Assembly: GCA_963764165.1 (NCBI GenBank)
Contig: CAVXRD010000002.1
Coordinates: 2,560,001 to 2,624,000 of the forward strand
Source of the DNA: an uncultured Verrucomicrobiae bacterium
GTDB taxonomy: Bacteria > Verrucomicrobiota > Verrucomicrobiia > Limisphaerales > Palsa-1400
Direction of reading: 5' to 3'
DNA length: 64,000 bases
The stretch's first letter is position 1, and each line of letters begins with the position of its first letter. Shown here one piece after another: positions 42,971 to 51,233 of this stretch. A program made the position numbers and the translations under genes. The notes below the pieces were generated by a model that worked only from the letters and a program-made list of their open reading frames with translations, had not been told where the DNA came from and did not search any database.

Positions 42971-43008
42971 GCATTCACGCGTCTTAACCGTGCTCCATTG
43001 AGACGCTC

Positions 43009-43112
43009 GGTAGGGCGAGGCTCCTGCCGAGCCGGCCTATAATTCCCATTTTTATGGGATGAATGGGAATGATGGGAGTTATGGGGCGGCTCGGCAGGAG
43101 CCTCGCCCTACC
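43009..43112. repeat. REP-like doublet, family A
   Basis: Identical arms to 1268-1390 and a similar TTCCCAT/ATGGGA spacer. Confidence 0.9.
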
Positions 43113-43133: not shown

Positions 43134-43166
43134 CTTCATCCAATCTTAAGGTTCGCTCTGCATAAT
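43134..43166 (+). promoter_or_regulatory. Putative OmpR-type direct-repeat box plus -10
   Basis: CTTCA-N6-CTTAAGGTT followed by CATAAT; same layout at 45591. Confidence 0.6.
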
Positions 43167-43209
43167 GGCTGTCGTGACGCAGGAAGTCATGATAGCGTCG
43201 GCCCAAGCC

Positions 43210-43860
43210 ATGCGGCTTTTGATTGTCGAAGATGAACCGGATTTGCGCAGCGGACTTGAACAAGCCCTGCGCGAGGAAGGCTACGCGGTGGATTCCGCAG
43301 GCGAAGGAACCGAAGCTCTTTACAAGGCGGAAACCTGGGATTACGACACCATCGTGCTGGATATCATGCTTCCAGGCATCGACGGCTGGGAAATTCTCAA
43401 GCGCATTCGGAAAACAAAAAAGGTTCCAGTCCTCATGCTGACCGCGCGGGATGCCTTCACCGACCGCGTTCGCGGCCTTGATCTCGGGGCGGATGATTAT
43501 CTCGTCAAGCCGTTTGATCTTTCGGAACTTCTGGCCCGCGTTCGCGCTTTGATCCGCCGCTCGGCGGGTTCCCCGAATCCCGTTTCTGTCCTTGGCCCCA
43601 TCGCCATCAACACTGCTTCGCGCCATGTCGAAGTCGAGGGCAAGCACGTCGAGCTGACAGCGCGGGAATACGCGTTGCTCGAATATCTCGTCAACCGCCG
43701 GGGCGTCGTCGTCAGCCGCACGGAATTGTATGACCACCTGTTTGCGGAGGAGGACGAGTCATGCTCAAATCTTCTTGACGTTCACGTTTGCAATCTGCGT
43801 CGGAAGCTCGGCAAGGATTTGATTCAAACCCGCCGCGGCCACGGCTACGTGGTGGAATAA
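43210..43860 (+). CDS. OmpR-family response regulator
   Basis: MRLLIVEDE, LDIMLP, GADDYLVKPF, winged helix ending TRRGHGY. Confidence 0.95.
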   Translation: MRLLIVEDEPDLRSGLEQALREEGYAVDSAGEGTEALYKAETWDYDTIVLDIMLPGIDGWEILKRIRKTKKVPVLMLTARDAFTDRVRGLDLGADDYLVKPFDLSELLARVRALIRRSAGSPNPVSVLGPIAINTASRHVEVEGKHVELTAREYALLEYLVNRRGVVVSRTELYDHLFAEEDESCSNLLDVHVCNLRRKLGKDLIQTRRGHGYVVE

Positions 43861-43864
43861 CCGC

Positions 43865-45304
43865 ATGTTCCCCAAATCCATTCGCTGGCGGATTCAATTG
43901 TGGCATGGCGCTCTTCTCGTTTGCCTGGTGGCTGTGATGCTCGGCACTTTTTACGTCTACGTTCGCGCCGAGAAATTCCGTTTGGTTGATGATCAGCTTG
44001 AATCTTATTTGACGCCCTTGATGCCGCATTTGTTTCCGCCGGGCGGCGGGCGCGGATTCGGGCCACCGGCCGGCCCGGACGATGATCCGCCAGAGGACGA
44101 GCCATTCGGCGGACCGCACGAGCGCGGCCGGCCCGAACCAACGGAATTCGGCAGCGAGCAATCCAAAGGAGTCTACTACACCGCGTGGTCGTCGCGGGGA
44201 ATGGTCGTTGCCAAAACAACGAATTCCCCGGCTCTGACACCACCTCGCGCGGAAGAGGGCCGTCATCGCGCCAGCCGCCTGCGGGGCACAGCGCGGGAAT
44301 TAATCGTCTTCACTCCGCACGACGGTGTCGTCGTTCTTGGCATGCCGATCGGCACCACACTGGACGAGCTTCACCGGCTGGCTTGGATCGAGGCGCTGGC
44401 GGGCGTGGGATTGGTGGCCTTCGGATTGGCGGGCGGCTGGTGGGTGGCTGGACATACGTTGCAACCCATTCAAGAAATCAGCAAAGTCGCTGACAACATC
44501 GCGGCTGGCGATCGAGCGCGTCGCATCAATGTCCAGGAGGCAGACAGCGAATTGGGAAAATTGGCCACCGTATTAAACACAACTTTCGACAAGCTCGACA
44601 AGGCCTTCGAGCAGCAGGTTCATTTTACCGCCGATGCCTCCCATGAACTGCGCACTCCTGTTTCCGTTATCCTGACCCAGACTCAGTTGGCTTTGTCCCG
44701 CGAGCGTGCCGGCGCCGAATATCGCGAAAGCCTCGCCGTCTGCCAGCGCGCCGCCGAACGGATGCGCGGCCTCATCAACACGCTGCTTGACCTCGCACGG
44801 GCGGATGGAACCGGATTCGACTTGACGGTGGCCGATTGCGATTTGCGCCGCATAGCTGACAGCGCCATTGATCTCGTTGGAACGCTCGCGGCACAAAAGG
44901 AAACGAAACTGCAAGTCAACGTCGACGCCATTCATTTGAAAGGCGATCCATCCAAATTGGAGCAGGTGCTGGTCAATCTTTTGCAGAACGCCATCCTCCA
45001 CAACCCTCCCGGCACGCAAGTTTGTTTGTCGATCCACTCGAAGGAAGGTTACGCCGAGATTCGTGTCTCAGACGATGGAGCGGGCATCCCAGCCGAGGCG
45101 AGAGACCGTATATTTGACCGGTTTTTCCGTGTCGACAAGAGCCGGTCCAGCGCCACGGGGGGGAGCGGATTGGGGCTGGCCATTTGCAAAGCGATTATCG
45201 AAGCGCACGACGGGACTATTATCGTCGAAGATAAGGCGGCCAAGGGCACTGAGTTTCGCGTTCTGCTGCCGTTGAATTCCACGCCCGAGCCATCGAAAGG
45301 ATAG
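43865..45304 (+). CDS. Sensor histidine kinase (2 TM, HAMP)
   Basis: Motifs DASHELRTP, NLLQNA, DDGAGI, GGSGLGLAI. Confidence 0.95.
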   Translation: MFPKSIRWRIQLWHGALLVCLVAVMLGTFYVYVRAEKFRLVDDQLESYLTPLMPHLFPPGGGRGFGPPAGPDDDPPEDEPFGGPHERGRPEPTEFGSEQSKGVYYTAWSSRGMVVAKTTNSPALTPPRAEEGRHRASRLRGTARELIVFTPHDGVVVLGMPIGTTLDELHRLAWIEALAGVGLVAFGLAGGWWVAGHTLQPIQEISKVADNIAAGDRARRINVQEADSELGKLATVLNTTFDKLDKAFEQQVHFTADASHELRTPVSVILTQTQLALSRERAGAEYRESLAVCQRAAERMRGLINTLLDLARADGTGFDLTVADCDLRRIADSAIDLVGTLAAQKETKLQVNVDAIHLKGDPSKLEQVLVNLLQNAILHNPPGTQVCLSIHSKEGYAEIRVSDDGAGIPAEARDRIFDRFFRVDKSRSSATGGSGLGLAICKAIIEAHDGTIIVEDKAAKGTEFRVLLPLNSTPEPSKG

Positions 45305-45308
45305 CGTC

Positions 45309-45485
45309 TTAACTTGGATTGATCTTGGGTTTCTCGAGACAGAGGACCAAGATACACACAAAACAAATGTCGTCGCCGGCTTCTGCGTACGGACTAAGCG
45401 AAATCCAATGTCCGCTGCGAATGATAAGACATATCAACCAAATAACTAGAAGAGTATTCAGCAGCGGTTTTCTTTTTGGATTCAT
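45309..45485 (-). CDS. Possible small membrane protein
   Basis: MNPKRKPLLNTLLVIWLICLII...; GAGAGGA upstream; no family recognised. Confidence 0.25.
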   Translation of the reverse strand: MNPKRKPLLNTLLVIWLICLIIRSGHWISLSPYAEAGDDICFVCILVLCLEKPKINPS

Positions 45486-45590
45486 TAGTCCATTTCCTCT
45501 CGACAGCATTATCCGCGAAATTTGCCGATCGCAATATAAATCACGGCTCTGCGCATGATATATTATGTTTCACGCATCATTTCCTGCGCC

Positions 45591-45624
45591 CTTCACGCAT
45601 CCTTAAGGTTGATTGCGCTAGAGT
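45591..45624 (+). promoter_or_regulatory. Putative OmpR-type direct-repeat box plus -10
   Basis: CTTCA-N6-CTTAAGGTT then TAGAGT, ending 6 nt before ATG 45631. Confidence 0.6.
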
Positions 45625-45630
45625 GGCCGC

Positions 45631-47463
45631 ATGAAAAACAAATTTCATATACCCATCAAGTTTTCAAAAACGTTTTGGACTCTTGCGGTGGTGATCGGGA
45701 TGGCGGGCGGCGCTTCGGCGGATCCGCTTATCACTTCCTGGTTCACCACTTACTCCGGCAGATACGCCCGGATCTACACCACGGACAGCGCCAAGCTGGC
45801 AGGCGCCGCGGTCACAACGTGGACCAACGGCTCGCTGATCCAATCGCTTCCGGCTTACGACGGAATTCAGGAAGTCGATGACTCGTCCAATTGGGTTTAC
45901 ATCCGCAGCACCGGGCTGGGCTCGCATGTCATGGGGCCGTGGTATTTGGATGCGGCCCATACCCAGGCATTTCCCAGCTATCCCACCAATCAGCAGGTGC
46001 TTTATCGAATCCCTCGCTCGCCCGCGGCGGGAACAGGAACGCTGAACGGCGGTGGCGCGATTGGATATTTCGTGGATGGCGTTTCCATGTTCAACAGTTG
46101 GGATGCATTTTATTGGAACGGATCGGCGGATGTTTCCGGCGGCGCGGGCAACGGCGCTGCGTGGAATCGCGATGCATACGTCAACGAAGGCGTCACCTTC
46201 GATCCGGGCAATGCTCACCAGCCCGGCAGCGGCCAATACCATTACCACGCCAATCCCCCTGCCCTGCGCTATCTGCTGGGAGATCACGTCAATTACAATT
46301 CCGCCACGGACACTTACACCGAATCCACCAACGCGCTGACGCAGCATTCGCCCATCCTCGGCTGGGTCGCGGACGGCTGGCCGATTTATGGCCCCTATGG
46401 CTATTCGAACGCCACCAATTCCGGCAGCGGAATTCGCCGGATGATTTCCGGTTACGTTCCCCGCAACGGCGAATATGGGACGGACAATCTCTCGACCACC
46501 GGCGCAGCCCGCACGACGATCCCGGCGTGGGCGCAGAGGTTCTACAGTTTGTCCGCCGCGCAAAGCGGCCCAACCGTTTCCACCAGTTATCCATTCGGGC
46601 GTTACATGGAGGATAACGATTACCTGGGCGATCTCACTAATTCCGCGACGCACGCGGTTTACCAGCAAGGCACCGACTTCGATTTGGATGAATACAATGG
46701 CCGCTATTGCGTCACGCCGGAATATCCCAATGGCACCTACGCCTACTTCGTCGCCATAGCTTCGAATGGCACGCCCGTGTTTCCGTATAACATTGGCCGC
46801 GCCTACTACGGAGACCCGGTGGGCGGCGCGGTGTCAGGCATCGCCGAAACGGTGACGACGAATTTTGTGGGAGGCCCGAGCCTCGCGCCGGAGATCAATC
46901 CGCCGACTGTCAAGAATACAACCGTCACTTTGACCTGGAGCGCCACCGAAGGCGGAACTTACCTCGTGGCCTCCAGCACGAATCTGCAAACCTGGACAAC
47001 AAATTCCACCAACGTGTCCGCAGTGATGAACACGGGCTCATATACGAATACAAGCTTGTCCACCGAACGCTTCTACGTCGTGGCGCGGACGGCGCTTGCG
47101 GCCTATTCGCCGGTAACTGGAACAACAACGACGAGTGGAGGCGGCGGCAATCTGGTGACGATGTCTCCGAATTCCGGCGCGCGCGGCAGCACGATCACGG
47201 TGACCGCGACAATTAGCGCCAGCGCCAATCCGCCTCCGCCGCCAACAGCGGGAGCGCCGGTGGCGACCTTCACCGTCGGAACACTTAGCGTCACAAGTCC
47301 GGTGTATACAGTCAGCAGCGGCGCGGGAGTTGTGACCGGCAAACTGACAATCCCATCCACAACCGCAGCGGGAAGCCAGACGGTGACGATCACGTTCTCG
47401 CCACCACCCGGCCAAACGCAAGGGCCGACCTACACGCAATCCGGCGCGTTCACCATCGAGTGA
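45631..47463 (+). CDS. Secreted YHYH-domain protein with Ser/Thr-rich Ig-like tail
   Basis: Signal peptide; AHQPGSGQYHYH, HSPILGWVADGWPIYGPYGY, DLDEYNGRYCVTPEYPNGTYAYF. Confidence 0.85.
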   Translation: MKNKFHIPIKFSKTFWTLAVVIGMAGGASADPLITSWFTTYSGRYARIYTTDSAKLAGAAVTTWTNGSLIQSLPAYDGIQEVDDSSNWVYIRSTGLGSHVMGPWYLDAAHTQAFPSYPTNQQVLYRIPRSPAAGTGTLNGGGAIGYFVDGVSMFNSWDAFYWNGSADVSGGAGNGAAWNRDAYVNEGVTFDPGNAHQPGSGQYHYHANPPALRYLLGDHVNYNSATDTYTESTNALTQHSPILGWVADGWPIYGPYGYSNATNSGSGIRRMISGYVPRNGEYGTDNLSTTGAARTTIPAWAQRFYSLSAAQSGPTVSTSYPFGRYMEDNDYLGDLTNSATHAVYQQGTDFDLDEYNGRYCVTPEYPNGTYAYFVAIASNGTPVFPYNIGRAYYGDPVGGAVSGIAETVTTNFVGGPSLAPEINPPTVKNTTVTLTWSATEGGTYLVASSTNLQTWTTNSTNVSAVMNTGSYTNTSLSTERFYVVARTALAAYSPVTGTTTTSGGGGNLVTMSPNSGARGSTITVTATISASANPPPPPTAGAPVATFTVGTLSVTSPVYTVSSGAGVVTGKLTIPSTTAAGSQTVTITFSPPPGQTQGPTYTQSGAFTIE

Positions 47464-47470
47464 TCACCAC

Positions 47471-49360
47471 ATGAGCGATTGCAACATCACGCGAGTCCTG
47501 ATGCTCCTTGCATTGGGACTCGCCTTGGGCGCGCAGGGCGCCTCGCTGGAAATCGGCATCACGCCGAAGTTTTCGAGCGAGGTGATCCAACCGGCTTCGC
47601 TCCGTTACCGCACCTCGGCGGGCGAGGCGTTTTCGATCACCCGCGTCAGTTTCCTCGCCAGCGATTTTGCGCTTCAACGAATGGACGGGACGTGGTTGGA
47701 GATGACAAACTCGGCGGCCTGGTTCGATCTTGAGCGCAATCGAAATTCATTTCGCCTCGATGAGATTCCTGTGGGCGAATACGGATCGATTCGCTTTTGC
47801 ATCGGCCTTGAGACGAATCTCAATCACGCCGACGTTGCGCAATTCCCCGCAGGGCATACCCTCAATCCGGAGGTCAACGGACTCCACTGGAGCTGGCAGG
47901 GCGGTTACATTTTTCTCGCGCTTGAGGGTTTGTGGAGAAACGCGGGCGGCCAGTTTGACGGCTGGGCCTACCATCTGGCGCGCGATCCCAATTGCACGCG
48001 CATCACGCTCGCGGCGCCGTTGACAATTACGGACCGCTCTCGCGTCGATATCGACTTTGATATTGCCACACTTCTCAACGCGCCTCGTCCGCTTTCGTTC
48101 GCGCAGGACGGAACTTCGACACACTCACGCGACGGCGATCCGATTGCGGCGGCGCTCGACTCGAATTTGCCGGGCGCGTTTCGGATCCATGGCGTCAATA
48201 CGAATATCGAAACCGCCGCATCCCTTGCGCGTGTGGAGCCGTTGTATTTGCCAAAGAAATTCACTCCATACGCGTTCAACATGAATGCCACGTTTCCAAT
48301 CCCCGACCTGCCCCGCGACAATCCGCTCACGGTGGAACGCGTCGCGCTTGGCGAAATGCTCTTTCACGAAACGGCGCTCTCGCGCGATGGCACGTTGTCC
48401 TGCGCCTCGTGTCACAAAACATCCGAAGGCATGAGTGACGCGCGGCAATTCAGTGTCGGCGTTCGCGGTCAGGTAGGAGTCCGCCACGCCATGCCGTTGT
48501 TCAATCTGGCGTGGAAACGAACGTTCTTTTGGGATGGGCGTGCGCCTTCACTCCGCGCGCAATCGCTCATGCCCATTCAAGACCATTCCGAAATGGATGA
48601 ATCGCTGGCCAGCGTCGCGACCAAACTCGCAGCGGATTCAAATTATCGCGCGGCTTTCCAAACGGCCTTTGAGCCCGGCGACATCACGCCCGAAAAAATC
48701 AGCCTCGCGCTGGAGCAATTTCTACTGACCCGCATTTCTGGCGACTCGAAATTTGATCGAGCCATGCGCGGAGCAGAAACACTCACGGACGAAGAGAAGC
48801 GCGGTTTCCAATTATTCTCAACCGAATATGATCCGCGCCGCGGACAATTTGGAGCCGATTGTTTTCACTGCCACGGCGGCATGCTTTTCAAGAGCCAGGA
48901 ATTCGGAAATAACGGGCTCGATTCGGATGTCAAAGACAGCGCGAACCAATCGCCGGTAGGGACGCCTCGCCGAGGCGTCCGGGGTGAGGCGATTTCCACG
49001 CGCAACCTAGGACGCCTCGGTGAGGCGTCCCTACCTTTAAGCCCCAAAGACATCGGACGCGCCAAGGTAACTGGCAAGGATTCGGACGCTGGCAAATTCG
49101 CCGTTCCTTCGTTGCGAAATGTGGAATTGCGAGCGCCTTACATGCATGACGGACGTTTCAAAACATTGGAGGAAGCCGTGGCGCATTACAGCACTGGAGT
49201 CAGACGGAGCGCCACGCTTGATCCCAATTTGGCAAAGCATCCTGATGGCGGGCTTCATCTGAGCGATTCGGATCAAAGGGCGTTGGTTGCTTTTCTAAAA
49301 ACGCTGACCGACGATTCACGGCGCACGAACGCTGACAGAGTCGTCGCGAGCACCCTCTGA
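47471..49360 (+). CDS. MbnP-like (WxW) domain fused to MbnH/MauG-like di-heme cytochrome c peroxidase
   Basis: N-terminal LHWSWQGGYIFLALEG. C-terminal DNPLT, CASCH, FWDGRA, CFHCH, PSLRNV, PYMHDG. Confidence 0.85.
   Translation: MSDCNITRVLMLLALGLALGAQGASLEIGITPKFSSEVIQPASLRYRTSAGEAFSITRVSFLASDFALQRMDGTWLEMTNSAAWFDLERNRNSFRLDEIPVGEYGSIRFCIGLETNLNHADVAQFPAGHTLNPEVNGLHWSWQGGYIFLALEGLWRNAGGQFDGWAYHLARDPNCTRITLAAPLTITDRSRVDIDFDIATLLNAPRPLSFAQDGTSTHSRDGDPIAAALDSNLPGAFRIHGVNTNIETAASLARVEPLYLPKKFTPYAFNMNATFPIPDLPRDNPLTVERVALGEMLFHETALSRDGTLSCASCHKTSEGMSDARQFSVGVRGQVGVRHAMPLFNLAWKRTFFWDGRAPSLRAQSLMPIQDHSEMDESLASVATKLAADSNYRAAFQTAFEPGDITPEKISLALEQFLLTRISGDSKFDRAMRGAETLTDEEKRGFQLFSTEYDPRRGQFGADCFHCHGGMLFKSQEFGNNGLDSDVKDSANQSPVGTPRRGVRGEAISTRNLGRLGEASLPLSPKDIGRAKVTGKDSDAGKFAVPSLRNVELRAPYMHDGRFKTLEEAVAHYSTGVRRSATLDPNLAKHPDGGLHLSDSDQRALVAFLKTLTDDSRRTNADRVVASTL
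48955..49035. repeat. Family B REP doublet inserted in-frame inside a CDS
   Basis: 81 bp; hairpins and spacer match 11255-11355 in reverse orientation. Confidence 0.9.
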
Positions 49361-50587
49361 AGTTTCCGGCGCCGTAATGGCAAACACTTTTCCGTCCAGC
49401 GTCAGCGCGTAAACTTCGCCGTCAAGATCCTCCGCAAAGCTGGTGATGTTTTTCGGCTGCTCCAGCAGCGTGTCCATGGCGGTGACTTTGCCGTGCTCGT
49501 AACGGAATCCCCAAATGGTGCCGAGCGCGTAATCCGCATAGAGGTAAACGCCGCGCAGTTTCGGATATTTCGCGCCGCGATATACATAACCGCCAATGAC
49601 ACACGCGCCGATGCTGTGCTTGGGAAAAAGCGCTTGCGACATGAAATTTGTCTTATGCGGATATTCCATCACTGGGTCGATGAAGCGAGCCCCATCCGGC
49701 CCGGGCTTGAAATGGTGCGCGCCTTCCCGAATGCCCCAGCCGTAATTGCCGCCTTTGACAATTAAATCAACCTCCTCCCAGGTATCCTGCCCGACGTCAC
49801 CGGCCCACATCTCGCCCGTCTCACGATCCCAACTGAAGCGCCACGGGTTGCGCAGTCCGTAAGCCCAGATTTCCTTGCGGATGCCGTTCTCGTAAAAATC
49901 CGGCTCGCCGGTGAATGGGTTGTCCGAAGGAATTCCGTAAGGCAGCGTCTGCGCTTTGCCCAGCACTTGAATTTTCTGGCGCGAATTGACGTCAATGCGA
50001 AGGATCTTCCCGCGAATCGTGGAAGTATTTTGCGCCGCGCCGAATTCGTCGTTTTGCCCGCCTCCATCCCCAACGCTGACGTAGAGAAAACCATCGCGGC
50101 CAAACGCCACCAGTCCCGATTTATGAACGTCGGAAGGCTGGGGAATTTGGAGCAGCGTCCGCATCGAGTTCGTGTCCGCGCGATCCTGGCCGGGTGGGAC
50201 TTTCCATTCCGTCAATTCCGTGCGGCGCGGATTCTCCCGGCTGTAAAAAATATAAAACAACCCGTTCGTCTTGAAACCCGGATGAAAAGCGAGGCTGAGA
50301 AGCCCCTGCTCCGTTGAAGTATGCGGCTGCCACGCTTCGATATTGAGCAGCTCCTTGGCGCCCGAGCCGTCCTCGCCCTTTTTGACGGTCACAATTCTGC
50401 CATCCTGCTCAACAAGCGCGAAGCGATCCGAGCCATCCGGCGCGGGCGTCATCCAGACGAGATTCTCTGACTTGAACTTCGGAAAAACGGGCTGGAGTTT
50501 GACTTTGGGCAGCGGCTCATCCGCCGCCCACGCTGTCAAGCAAAATGAAGATATCCATGCCACCAGGCCAATGACTTTCCGATGCAT
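49316..50587 (-). CDS. PQQ-dependent sugar (glucose/sorbosone) dehydrogenase family
   Basis: Motifs EQGLLSLAFHP, GDGG, GKILRIDV, AYGLRNPWRFSWD, GGNYGW; signal peptide. Confidence 0.9.
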   Translation of the reverse strand: MHRKVIGLVAWISSFCLTAWAADEPLPKVKLQPVFPKFKSENLVWMTPAPDGSDRFALVEQDGRIVTVKKGEDGSGAKELLNIEAWQPHTSTEQGLLSLAFHPGFKTNGLFYIFYSRENPRRTELTEWKVPPGQDRADTNSMRTLLQIPQPSDVHKSGLVAFGRDGFLYVSVGDGGGQNDEFGAAQNTSTIRGKILRIDVNSRQKIQVLGKAQTLPYGIPSDNPFTGEPDFYENGIRKEIWAYGLRNPWRFSWDRETGEMWAGDVGQDTWEEVDLIVKGGNYGWGIREGAHHFKPGPDGARFIDPVMEYPHKTNFMSQALFPKHSIGACVIGGYVYRGAKYPKLRGVYLYADYALGTIWGFRYEHGKVTAMDTLLEQPKNITSFAEDLDGEVYALTLDGKVFAITAPETSEGARDDSVSVRAP

Positions 50588-50627
50588 GGCCCCACCGTAG
50601 CTGATGAGTTGCGGATTTCAATGGGGT

Positions 50628-51233
50628 CTATTTCGCCCCTTGGTCAATCCACGCCCGAAGAATGCCCACTTGATCGGCTGTCAACGGTTTCGGGCGATTG
50701 CGCCCACCGGGACCGCCGGGACCACCGGGGCCAGGGCCGGGACCGCCTTCAGGAGGTGGGCCACCAGGGCCAGGGCCGCCAGCGGGAGGAGGGCCGCCAG
50801 CGCCACCCGCTTGATCGGGAGCGGGGCCGCCAGGAGGAGGTCCGCCGGGGCGTCCGCCGCGAGGACCGCGACCTTTTGGAGGCATCGCGATGGAGTCACT
50901 TACCTGGGCGCACGCCGCTACGATCAGGCTGTTCTTGCTGTCGCCAGGGATGACCATTTTGCCTTCCTTTCCACCCTTAAGGACGGCGTCAAGCGAATCG
51001 ACTCGAAAATCGTGTTTCGGACGTTCCTCGCCGTGGCAATTCGCACACGACCCCTTGAGCATTGGCTGAATGTCCTTTTCGAAAGTCAGCCCTGCAGTGG
51101 TCGCGGCCGGCGGAAGTTTGCTGGTATCAATTTTCGTGATATCCCATTTATTGGGCGGCTTTTGATCCTGCGCGACAGCAGGCATGCCAGCCAGAAGCAA
51201 TCCGAACGCGGTCAATGCGAGAGTGTTTTTCAT
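50628..51233 (-). CDS. Planctomycete-type cytochrome c domain protein with Gly/Pro-rich loop
   Basis: Signal peptide; FEKDIQP..CANCHG, MPP, WIDQGA. Confidence 0.85.
   Translation of the reverse strand: MKNTLALTAFGLLLAGMPAVAQDQKPPNKWDITKIDTSKLPPAATTAGLTFEKDIQPMLKGSCANCHGEERPKHDFRVDSLDAVLKGGKEGKMVIPGDSKNSLIVAACAQVSDSIAMPPKGRGPRGGRPGGPPPGGPAPDQAGGAGGPPPAGGPGPGGPPPEGGPGPGPGGPGGPGGRNRPKPLTADQVGILRAWIDQGAK

Follow-up and report, generated by a model that had tools for sequence, protein, structure and literature searches.

A single-chain MbnP-MbnH protein and its secreted YHYH neighbour in a Verrucomicrobiae bacterium

Background

What could be the role of a MauG/MbnH-type di-haem enzyme that is joined in one polypeptide to an MbnP-type domain and encoded directly after a secreted protein of the YHYH family? 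This arrangement is found in a stretch of 64,000 nucleotides (the window; positions below refer to it unless another contig or locus is named) from an uncultured Verrucomicrobiae bacterium, in which a two-component system, a YHYH gene and the MbnP-MbnH fusion gene lie between 43165 and 49360, all on the plus strand. The MbnP/MbnH pair reaches far beyond the producers of methanobactin (PMC3621798), and in the available text of PMC13729199 it is tied to the release of copper from methanobactin. An initial annotation had read the locus as a copper-handling system whose enzyme and substrate are fused. The domain identities, the linkage to YHYH and the regulatory coupling of this interpretation stand; a copper site like that of MbnP and a role in copper acquisition are not supported.

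Results

The YHYH gene (610 amino acids, 45631–47463, plus strand) and the fusion gene (629 amino acids, 47471–49360, plus strand) are separated by 7 nucleotides, and these reading frames, the fusion, its motifs and the two-component genes in front were all found as initially annotated. The N-terminus of the fusion resembles a signal peptide, signal peptides having been assessed by eye only. Pfam recognises MbnP (99.4 bits, cut-off 27) and CCP_MauG (172 bits) in the fusion and YHYH in its neighbour (123 bits, cut-off 25). Within the fusion gene HWSW lies at 47885–47896 and CASCH at 48401, both as annotated, FWDGRA at 48527, CFHCH at 48860 instead of 48859, PYMHDG at 49136 and the codon of Tyr573, which stands 14 residues after His559, at 49187.

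The combination of fusion and YHYH is real and conserved. All 119 relatives listed (from the best 120 of 4560 matches; 56–70% identity) carry both Pfam families, and an assembly or frameshift artefact is ruled out since relatives hold both domains in one open reading frame. This applies to 76 of 78 fusion-side loci (the window, 17 named loci and 60 order-level places selected because their contigs are long; the 76 include the window and one duplicate), the other two being one lone MbnP and one locus cut by a contig end. The N-domain profile matches 102 of 301 genomes of the order, and a search with family PF20243 across the phylum, in a different sample, found only 8 of 251 genomes. Among named genome records the fused form occurs in Verrucomicrobiota and in one record of Armatimonadota, the Bacteroidota relatives being unfused. 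Within its order the fusion is common and not unusual.

Relatives of the YHYH protein at E 1e-50 or better exist in 85 of the 301 genomes, 82 of which also have an MbnP domain, and in 66 the YHYH gene is found no more than 3 kb upstream of the MbnP domain and in the same orientation. No p-value is attached to this co-occurrence because related genomes are not independent. The link extends beyond the phylum, as a YHYH gene is present at 9 of 63 other loci, all from Bacteroidota with unfused MbnP and MbnH, and in eight of the nine it lies directly or one gene downstream. The proposed linkage is thus conserved.

Residues 22–243 of the fusion (47534–48199, plus strand) have the MbnP fold. A search of the PDB with the single sequence of this domain gave no match; a profile search matched the MbnP structure 7L6G, which together with the Pfam score upholds the annotated identity. 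In an alignment of 194 fusions, on which the residue counts for the fusion rest, W140 and W142 of the WxW motif occur in all 194, as do R58, E152, H168 and H218, followed by D223 (193), H139 (181) and H129 (178). The position of the Met ligand, which in 7L6G precedes the first Trp of the motif by two residues, corresponds to Leu138 and is Leu in 190 fusions and Met in 4. The copper-ligand His of MbnP, which we take to be His65, corresponding to His40 of the 7L6G chain, aligns by sequence, through a Methylocystis MbnP, with Thr57; this position holds Thr or Ser in 189 fusions and His in none. With Leu at the one position and Thr or Ser at the other, the N-domain is by alignment an MbnP in fold and WxW motif, predicted to be devoid of the characterised copper site, and the substitution therefore corrects the earlier assumption of such a site. 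The characterised site consists of His, Met, water and kynurenine 174 according to the available text of PMC11951088.

The MauG/MbnH-type di-haem domain comprises residues 266–620 (48266–49330, plus strand), as judged from a structure-database match and alignment, and this part of the annotation holds as well. It contains two CxxCH motifs (C311/C314/H315 and C464/C467/H468), and C311, C314, H315, Q364, P368, E374, M375 and the inter-haem Trp, W354, are invariant across the fusions. Y573, present in 192 of 192 fusion rows reaching that position, aligns with Tyr312 of 6E1C, which we assume to be the distal ligand of the second haem. The alignment supports a second haem that is Tyr-ligated as in MauG and MbnH, the ligand role of Y573 being predicted. 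A canonical bacterial cytochrome c peroxidase is ruled out by Tyr573 at the MbnH ligand position; in the available text of PMC11892367 such peroxidases have a His-Met second haem and His-Tyr ligation marks the MauG type off from them.

A feature absent from the initial annotation is a GTAG-type palindromic genomic repeat (48955–49038, no strand assigned), identified by repeat search and alignment, which lies in frame inside the haem domain and forms most of a 38-residue insert. The insert occurs in 1 of the 194 fusions, namely this copy, and lies outside the conserved system. A hairpin of −46.6 kcal/mol is predicted for 48926–49045. Across the genome the repeat has 251 matches, of which 16 fall inside open frames with 100 or more codons to either side, against about 126 expected for random stretches, and its in-frame position recalls the Rickettsia palindromic elements. 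Different inserts are present in the haem domain of relatives P0077 and P0093. The genome also encodes a second di-haem CCP_MauG protein without MbnP domain (G000:C2:2877107-2878645; L154:3108-4646).

The YHYH protein consists of a core (about residues 31–420) and a Thr/Ser/Pro-rich C-terminal part. W178, D191, H196, H204, H206, D248, Y253, D328 and Y372 are invariant in 68 of 68 sequences, and H239 nearly so. The core was modelled confidently (pLDDT 94, pTM 0.93). It had no Foldseek match at E 0.001 in a narrow search that does not establish the absence of a known fold, an Atlas search returned YHYH clusters only, with scores below 0.9, and sequence and profile searches gave no significant solved relative. 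A complex prediction of the fusion with the YHYH core scored 0.00 against a mark of 0.32 and was counted neither way.

In 12 loci without YHYH the fusion is directly followed by a gene for a giant secreted protein (L118:154-6780; L001, L002, L003, L110, L111, L119, L121, L127, L139, L140, L148), of which about 1800–2600 amino acids are in view, several copies being cut by locus ends and one broken. It combines galactose-oxidase-type, lectin or PA14, PKD, beta-propeller and di-haem domains, and its N-terminal part matches solved galactose oxidases (E 8e-94). HDMFC is found in 10, RNYHS in 11 and THSxN in 9 of the 12 copies; we take these to be the Cys-Tyr and copper-ligand motifs of galactose oxidase. 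A close relative of this oxidase (>50% identity) exists in 19 genomes, 18 of which have an MbnP domain, directly upstream in 15, and these 19 include 14 of the 20 MbnP-domain genomes that lack a close YHYH. Four genomes have both partners, each with two MbnP-domain genes on different contigs, and in 6 of the 102 MbnP-domain genomes neither partner was detected. Since a copper-oxidase-type gene takes the place of YHYH in a sister lineage, YHYH is by analogy likely to be a metal enzyme, with the fused protein responsible for its maturation or loading. Most oxidase-linked fusions have a Cys four residues before WxW.

Elsewhere, unfused MbnP/MbnH pairs adjoin genes for HMA proteins, multicopper oxidases, E1-E2 ATPases and TonB receptors (one representative each checked), and a Deinococcus pair adjoins copC and copD. 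The HMA and TonB neighbours would suit copper scavenging as in the methanobactin and MopE/CorA systems, with YHYH capturing copper outside and the fusion receiving it for the cell; so would the secretion-system sorting tail of flavobacterial YHYH and the copper-bound methanobactin left in the medium by MbnP/MbnH deletions (PMC13729199, available text). However, no transporter family recurs among the 78 fusion-side loci, the partner that replaces YHYH is a type of enzyme that uses copper and not a transporter, and the genome contains no MbnB orthologue, the query giving only a match of 26% identity (E 1e-5) on another contig. We therefore regard copper uptake as very unlikely. No TonB receptor was found among the scanned flanking genes of the window locus, which by Pfam are peptidase S9, GSDH, PSCyt1 and ApbE. 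A methanobactin operon is ruled out by the lack of mbnB and by these non-methanobactin flanks.

The two-component system in front consists of an OmpR/PhoB-family response regulator (43165–43860, plus strand; Pfam Response_reg and Trans_reg_C; nearest models PmrA and CusR/CopR-like, every score below cut-off), whose true start is probably the ATG at 43210, and a HAMP-HisKA-HATPase sensor kinase by Pfam (43865–45304, plus strand). Its coupling to the YHYH gene is borne out by a 20-base direct repeat, CTTCA-N6-CTTAAGGTT, which had not been annotated and in its strict form occurs three times in the genome: before the regulator (43134–43153, plus strand, with CATAAT at 43161–43166), before YHYH (45591–45610, plus strand) and before C2:1443272-1444864 (L153:7273-8865; 530 amino acids), the only other YHYH gene of the genome. 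At both YHYH genes a TAnnnT hexamer (TAGAGT in the window) follows the box at 8 nucleotides and the ATG 6 nucleotides later. This common spacing suggests activator-dependent, leaderless promoters; a consensus promoter scan gave nothing above shuffles. The regulator would be autoregulated through the box at 43134, and the second YHYH gene is a predicted third member of the regulon.

With at most one mismatch the core repeat precedes 21 of 47 YHYH genes, compared with 2.8% of random stretches. The 26 response regulators found near fusion loci comprise 12 that are close to that of the window (type A) and 14 that are not; 23 lie on the opposite and 3, including the window, on the same strand. In hand-picked YHYH-bearing loci (L108 and L149 added; L004, L143, L009 and L130 dropped) box A was found in 11 of the 12 type-A loci and none of the 12 of type B. 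A second box, TT(T/A)AC-N6-TTAACA, was found in all 12 type-B loci and none of the 12 of type A; neither box occurs in 12 oxidase loci. These counts are partly circular because both patterns were derived from the same loci, and a cleaner test is the number of copies in the whole genome, which is three.

Discussion

A reading of the locus as a two-component-activated envelope operon, to which we give slightly less than an even chance, starts from what was observed: the domain identities, their fusion, the conservation of the catalytic haem residues, the joint occurrence with YHYH, the boxes in common and the second type of partner. The response regulator would bind its box and switch on itself, the YHYH-fusion operon and the second YHYH gene elsewhere. 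Once the fusion is exported and its haems are attached, its His/Tyr di-haem domain would oxidise Trp140 of its own MbnP domain with H2O2, as MbnH does, in cis or in trans. The resulting metal site, probably for copper, would be built from ligands other than those of methanotroph MbnP, with H139, H168, H218, H129 and E152 as candidates. Through this site the metal centre of a dedicated neighbouring protein would be loaded or maintained: in the window YHYH, whose His triad is invariant, and in the sister clade a copper radical oxidase of galactose-oxidase type. A more far-reaching version appears unlikely to us: YHYH would be a new class of secreted copper enzymes, with a fold without solved relative, matured by a self-oxidising chain that forms a His-based kynurenine site in cis and acts as dedicated metallochaperone, the device having been re-assigned to the giant galactose-oxidase/di-haem enzyme in the sister clade.

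Several findings weigh against the maturation of YHYH by a self-oxidised fusion. Besides the loss of both ligand positions, the four-Cys motif of MbnP is absent and the N-domains of the fusions have no conserved Cys, and the equivalog cut-offs are reached neither for TIGR04052 (32.9 against 140 bits) nor for MbnH, TIGR04039 (214 against 363 bits). In a FastTree phylogeny the fusions linked to the oxidase group into one clade (14 rows, support 98). Repeated independent swaps are thereby ruled out, and the exchange of partners, having happened once, counts as evidence only once. Neither partner is in view for 18 of 76 fusion rows, some of which lie at contig ends. The structure model of the fusion has a pTM of 0.56, hence the arrangement of its domains is not defined. 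The segment between them, 46 residues in 152 of the 194 fusions, is of a constancy compatible with a fixed arrangement and is no demonstration of chemistry in cis. For YHYH, the available texts of PMC7824862 and bioRxiv 10.64898/2026.10.18.759936 predict a His-triad site for Zn and not copper, one of them adding a role as metal-dependent hydrolase.

Regulation also points elsewhere. Of 75 fusion loci, only 26 have a response regulator within 7 kb, the module in relatives is under two or more unrelated types of regulator, and the outer region of the sensor kinase is rich in Pro, Gly and Arg, with no conserved His, Met or Cys by eye. The lack of a metal-ligand pattern and the two regulator types fit a general envelope-stress signal, and with no MbnB orthologue, no TonB receptor in the flanks scanned and no conserved metal ligands seen in the sensor region of the kinase, copper acquisition is unsupported. 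The same features, the ECF sigma gene in front of the flavobacterial loci and the Zn or hydrolase function predicted for YHYH would agree with an envelope or peroxide stress module, whose di-haem domain removes or locally uses H2O2 and whose genes, including an unrelated Zn-type hydrolase YHYH, are joined only by a common signal. This alternative leaves the invariant WxW and the pattern of one copy per partner unexplained, and the His/Tyr haem type belongs to a class with poor dye-linked peroxidase activity in the available text of PMC11892367; we consider it quite improbable.

Direct tailoring of the partner, as by MauG, would account for the loss of the Met and His positions while WxW is kept. 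The haem domain would oxidise Trp178 or a conserved Tyr of YHYH, or the radical cofactor of the oxidase, and the ligand-less MbnP domain would be a docking surface or a hole-hopping relay via WxW. The invariant Trp178 and Tyr253/Tyr372 of YHYH besides its His triad, the single fusion copy per partner type and the distinct Cys before WxW in most oxidase-linked fusions are in favour of it. However, the oxidase partner has its own di-haem domain, making an extra oxidant redundant, the invariant H168 and H218 suggest that a metal site has been retained, and flavobacterial YHYH-linked MbnPs keep the Met position. Direct tailoring is thus somewhat improbable in our view, and the maturation of YHYH by a self-oxidised fusion remains the preferred reading.

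The locus makes the role of MbnP/MbnH outside methanobactin operons and the function of YHYH testable. Its single-chain form of enzyme and substrate is suited to the study of long-range Trp oxidation, and from its changed ligands one would expect a kynurenine-linked site that differs from that of MbnP. The exchange with a copper radical oxidase provides a concrete hypothesis for YHYH, namely that of a copper client, and the three-site regulon a reporter for finding the inducing signal. Novelty is limited in that the gene is common in its order and some relatives are already labelled 'MbnP family protein' in databases. Full-text literature searches revealed no MbnP-MbnH fusion and no link to YHYH, primary neighbourhood surveys and supplements lying outside these searches, so that an earlier mention is possible; the words 'fusion' and 'fused' are absent from the main text of PMC3621798 and PMC6405878.

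Further observations on the neighbourhoods

Flavobacterial-type loci (L056, L060, L065, L072, L078) contain an ECF sigma gene, a small membrane protein, MbnP, MbnH and a YHYH with secretion sorting tail, sometimes with a further di-haem gene, and in L072 a multicopper oxidase lies in between. Many of the Bacteroidota loci L021-L045 have triplets in which an MbnP with secretion sorting tail comes first and two di-haem genes follow; genes for HMA proteins or multicopper oxidases are often close by. Downstream of the fusion, type-B loci L101, L103, L104, L106, L144, L145 and L146 have another YHYH gene, shorter than the first, and a gene that looks kinase-like from the start of its sequence. Genes of EF-hand, sulfatase and PQQ-repeat type turn up repeatedly at other fusion loci. 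In the window, a glucose/sorbosone dehydrogenase-family gene (49316–51233, minus strand) lies on the opposite strand, shares 45 nucleotides with the end of the fusion gene and is preceded by a Planctomycete-type cytochrome c gene, an arrangement that is not kept beside the fusions of relatives. A second palindromic repeat family (43008–43112; 71 places in the genome) lies between a prolyl oligopeptidase gene and the regulator box, and a looser repeat, CTTAA-N6-CTTCA, at C2:2877214 near the start of the MbnP-less CCP_MauG gene.

Comparison with known systems

The closest known counterparts are MbnP and MbnH of Methylosinus trichosporium OB3b (PDB 7L6G and 6E1C; TIGR04052 and TIGR04039), with which the fusion shares both folds in the same order, WxW, two CxxCH motifs, the Tyr at the second-haem ligand position and the inter-haem Trp. 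In contrast to them it is one polypeptide, has Leu where MbnP has its Met ligand and Thr where MbnP has its His ligand, lacks the four-Cys motif and scores below both NCBIfam cut-offs. Methanobactin or TonB genes are replaced as partners by a YHYH or galactose-oxidase-type protein, and the operon is preceded by a two-component system that has a box of its own. Compared with MauG (PDB 3L4M), which acts in tryptophan tryptophylquinone maturation, the fusion falls short of the model TIGR03791 (170 against 444 bits), has no methylamine dehydrogenase genes nearby and carries a substrate-like domain in the same chain.

MopE*/SACCP and CorA/CorB of methanotrophs likewise have a di-haem enzyme beside a partner with a two-His kynurenine copper site, although their folds differ from that of MbnP, according to the available text of PMC11951088, and the N-domain here has the MbnP fold. 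By analogy, MopE* and CorA are a precedent for the kind of His-only kynurenine site that the fusion may form. The YHYH protein itself matches its family (PF14240) and has the His triad and Asp of phage YHYH domains (PMC7824862, available text); whereas phage YHYH is tied to phage tails, the protein described here is cell-encoded, secreted and tied to MbnP/MbnH.
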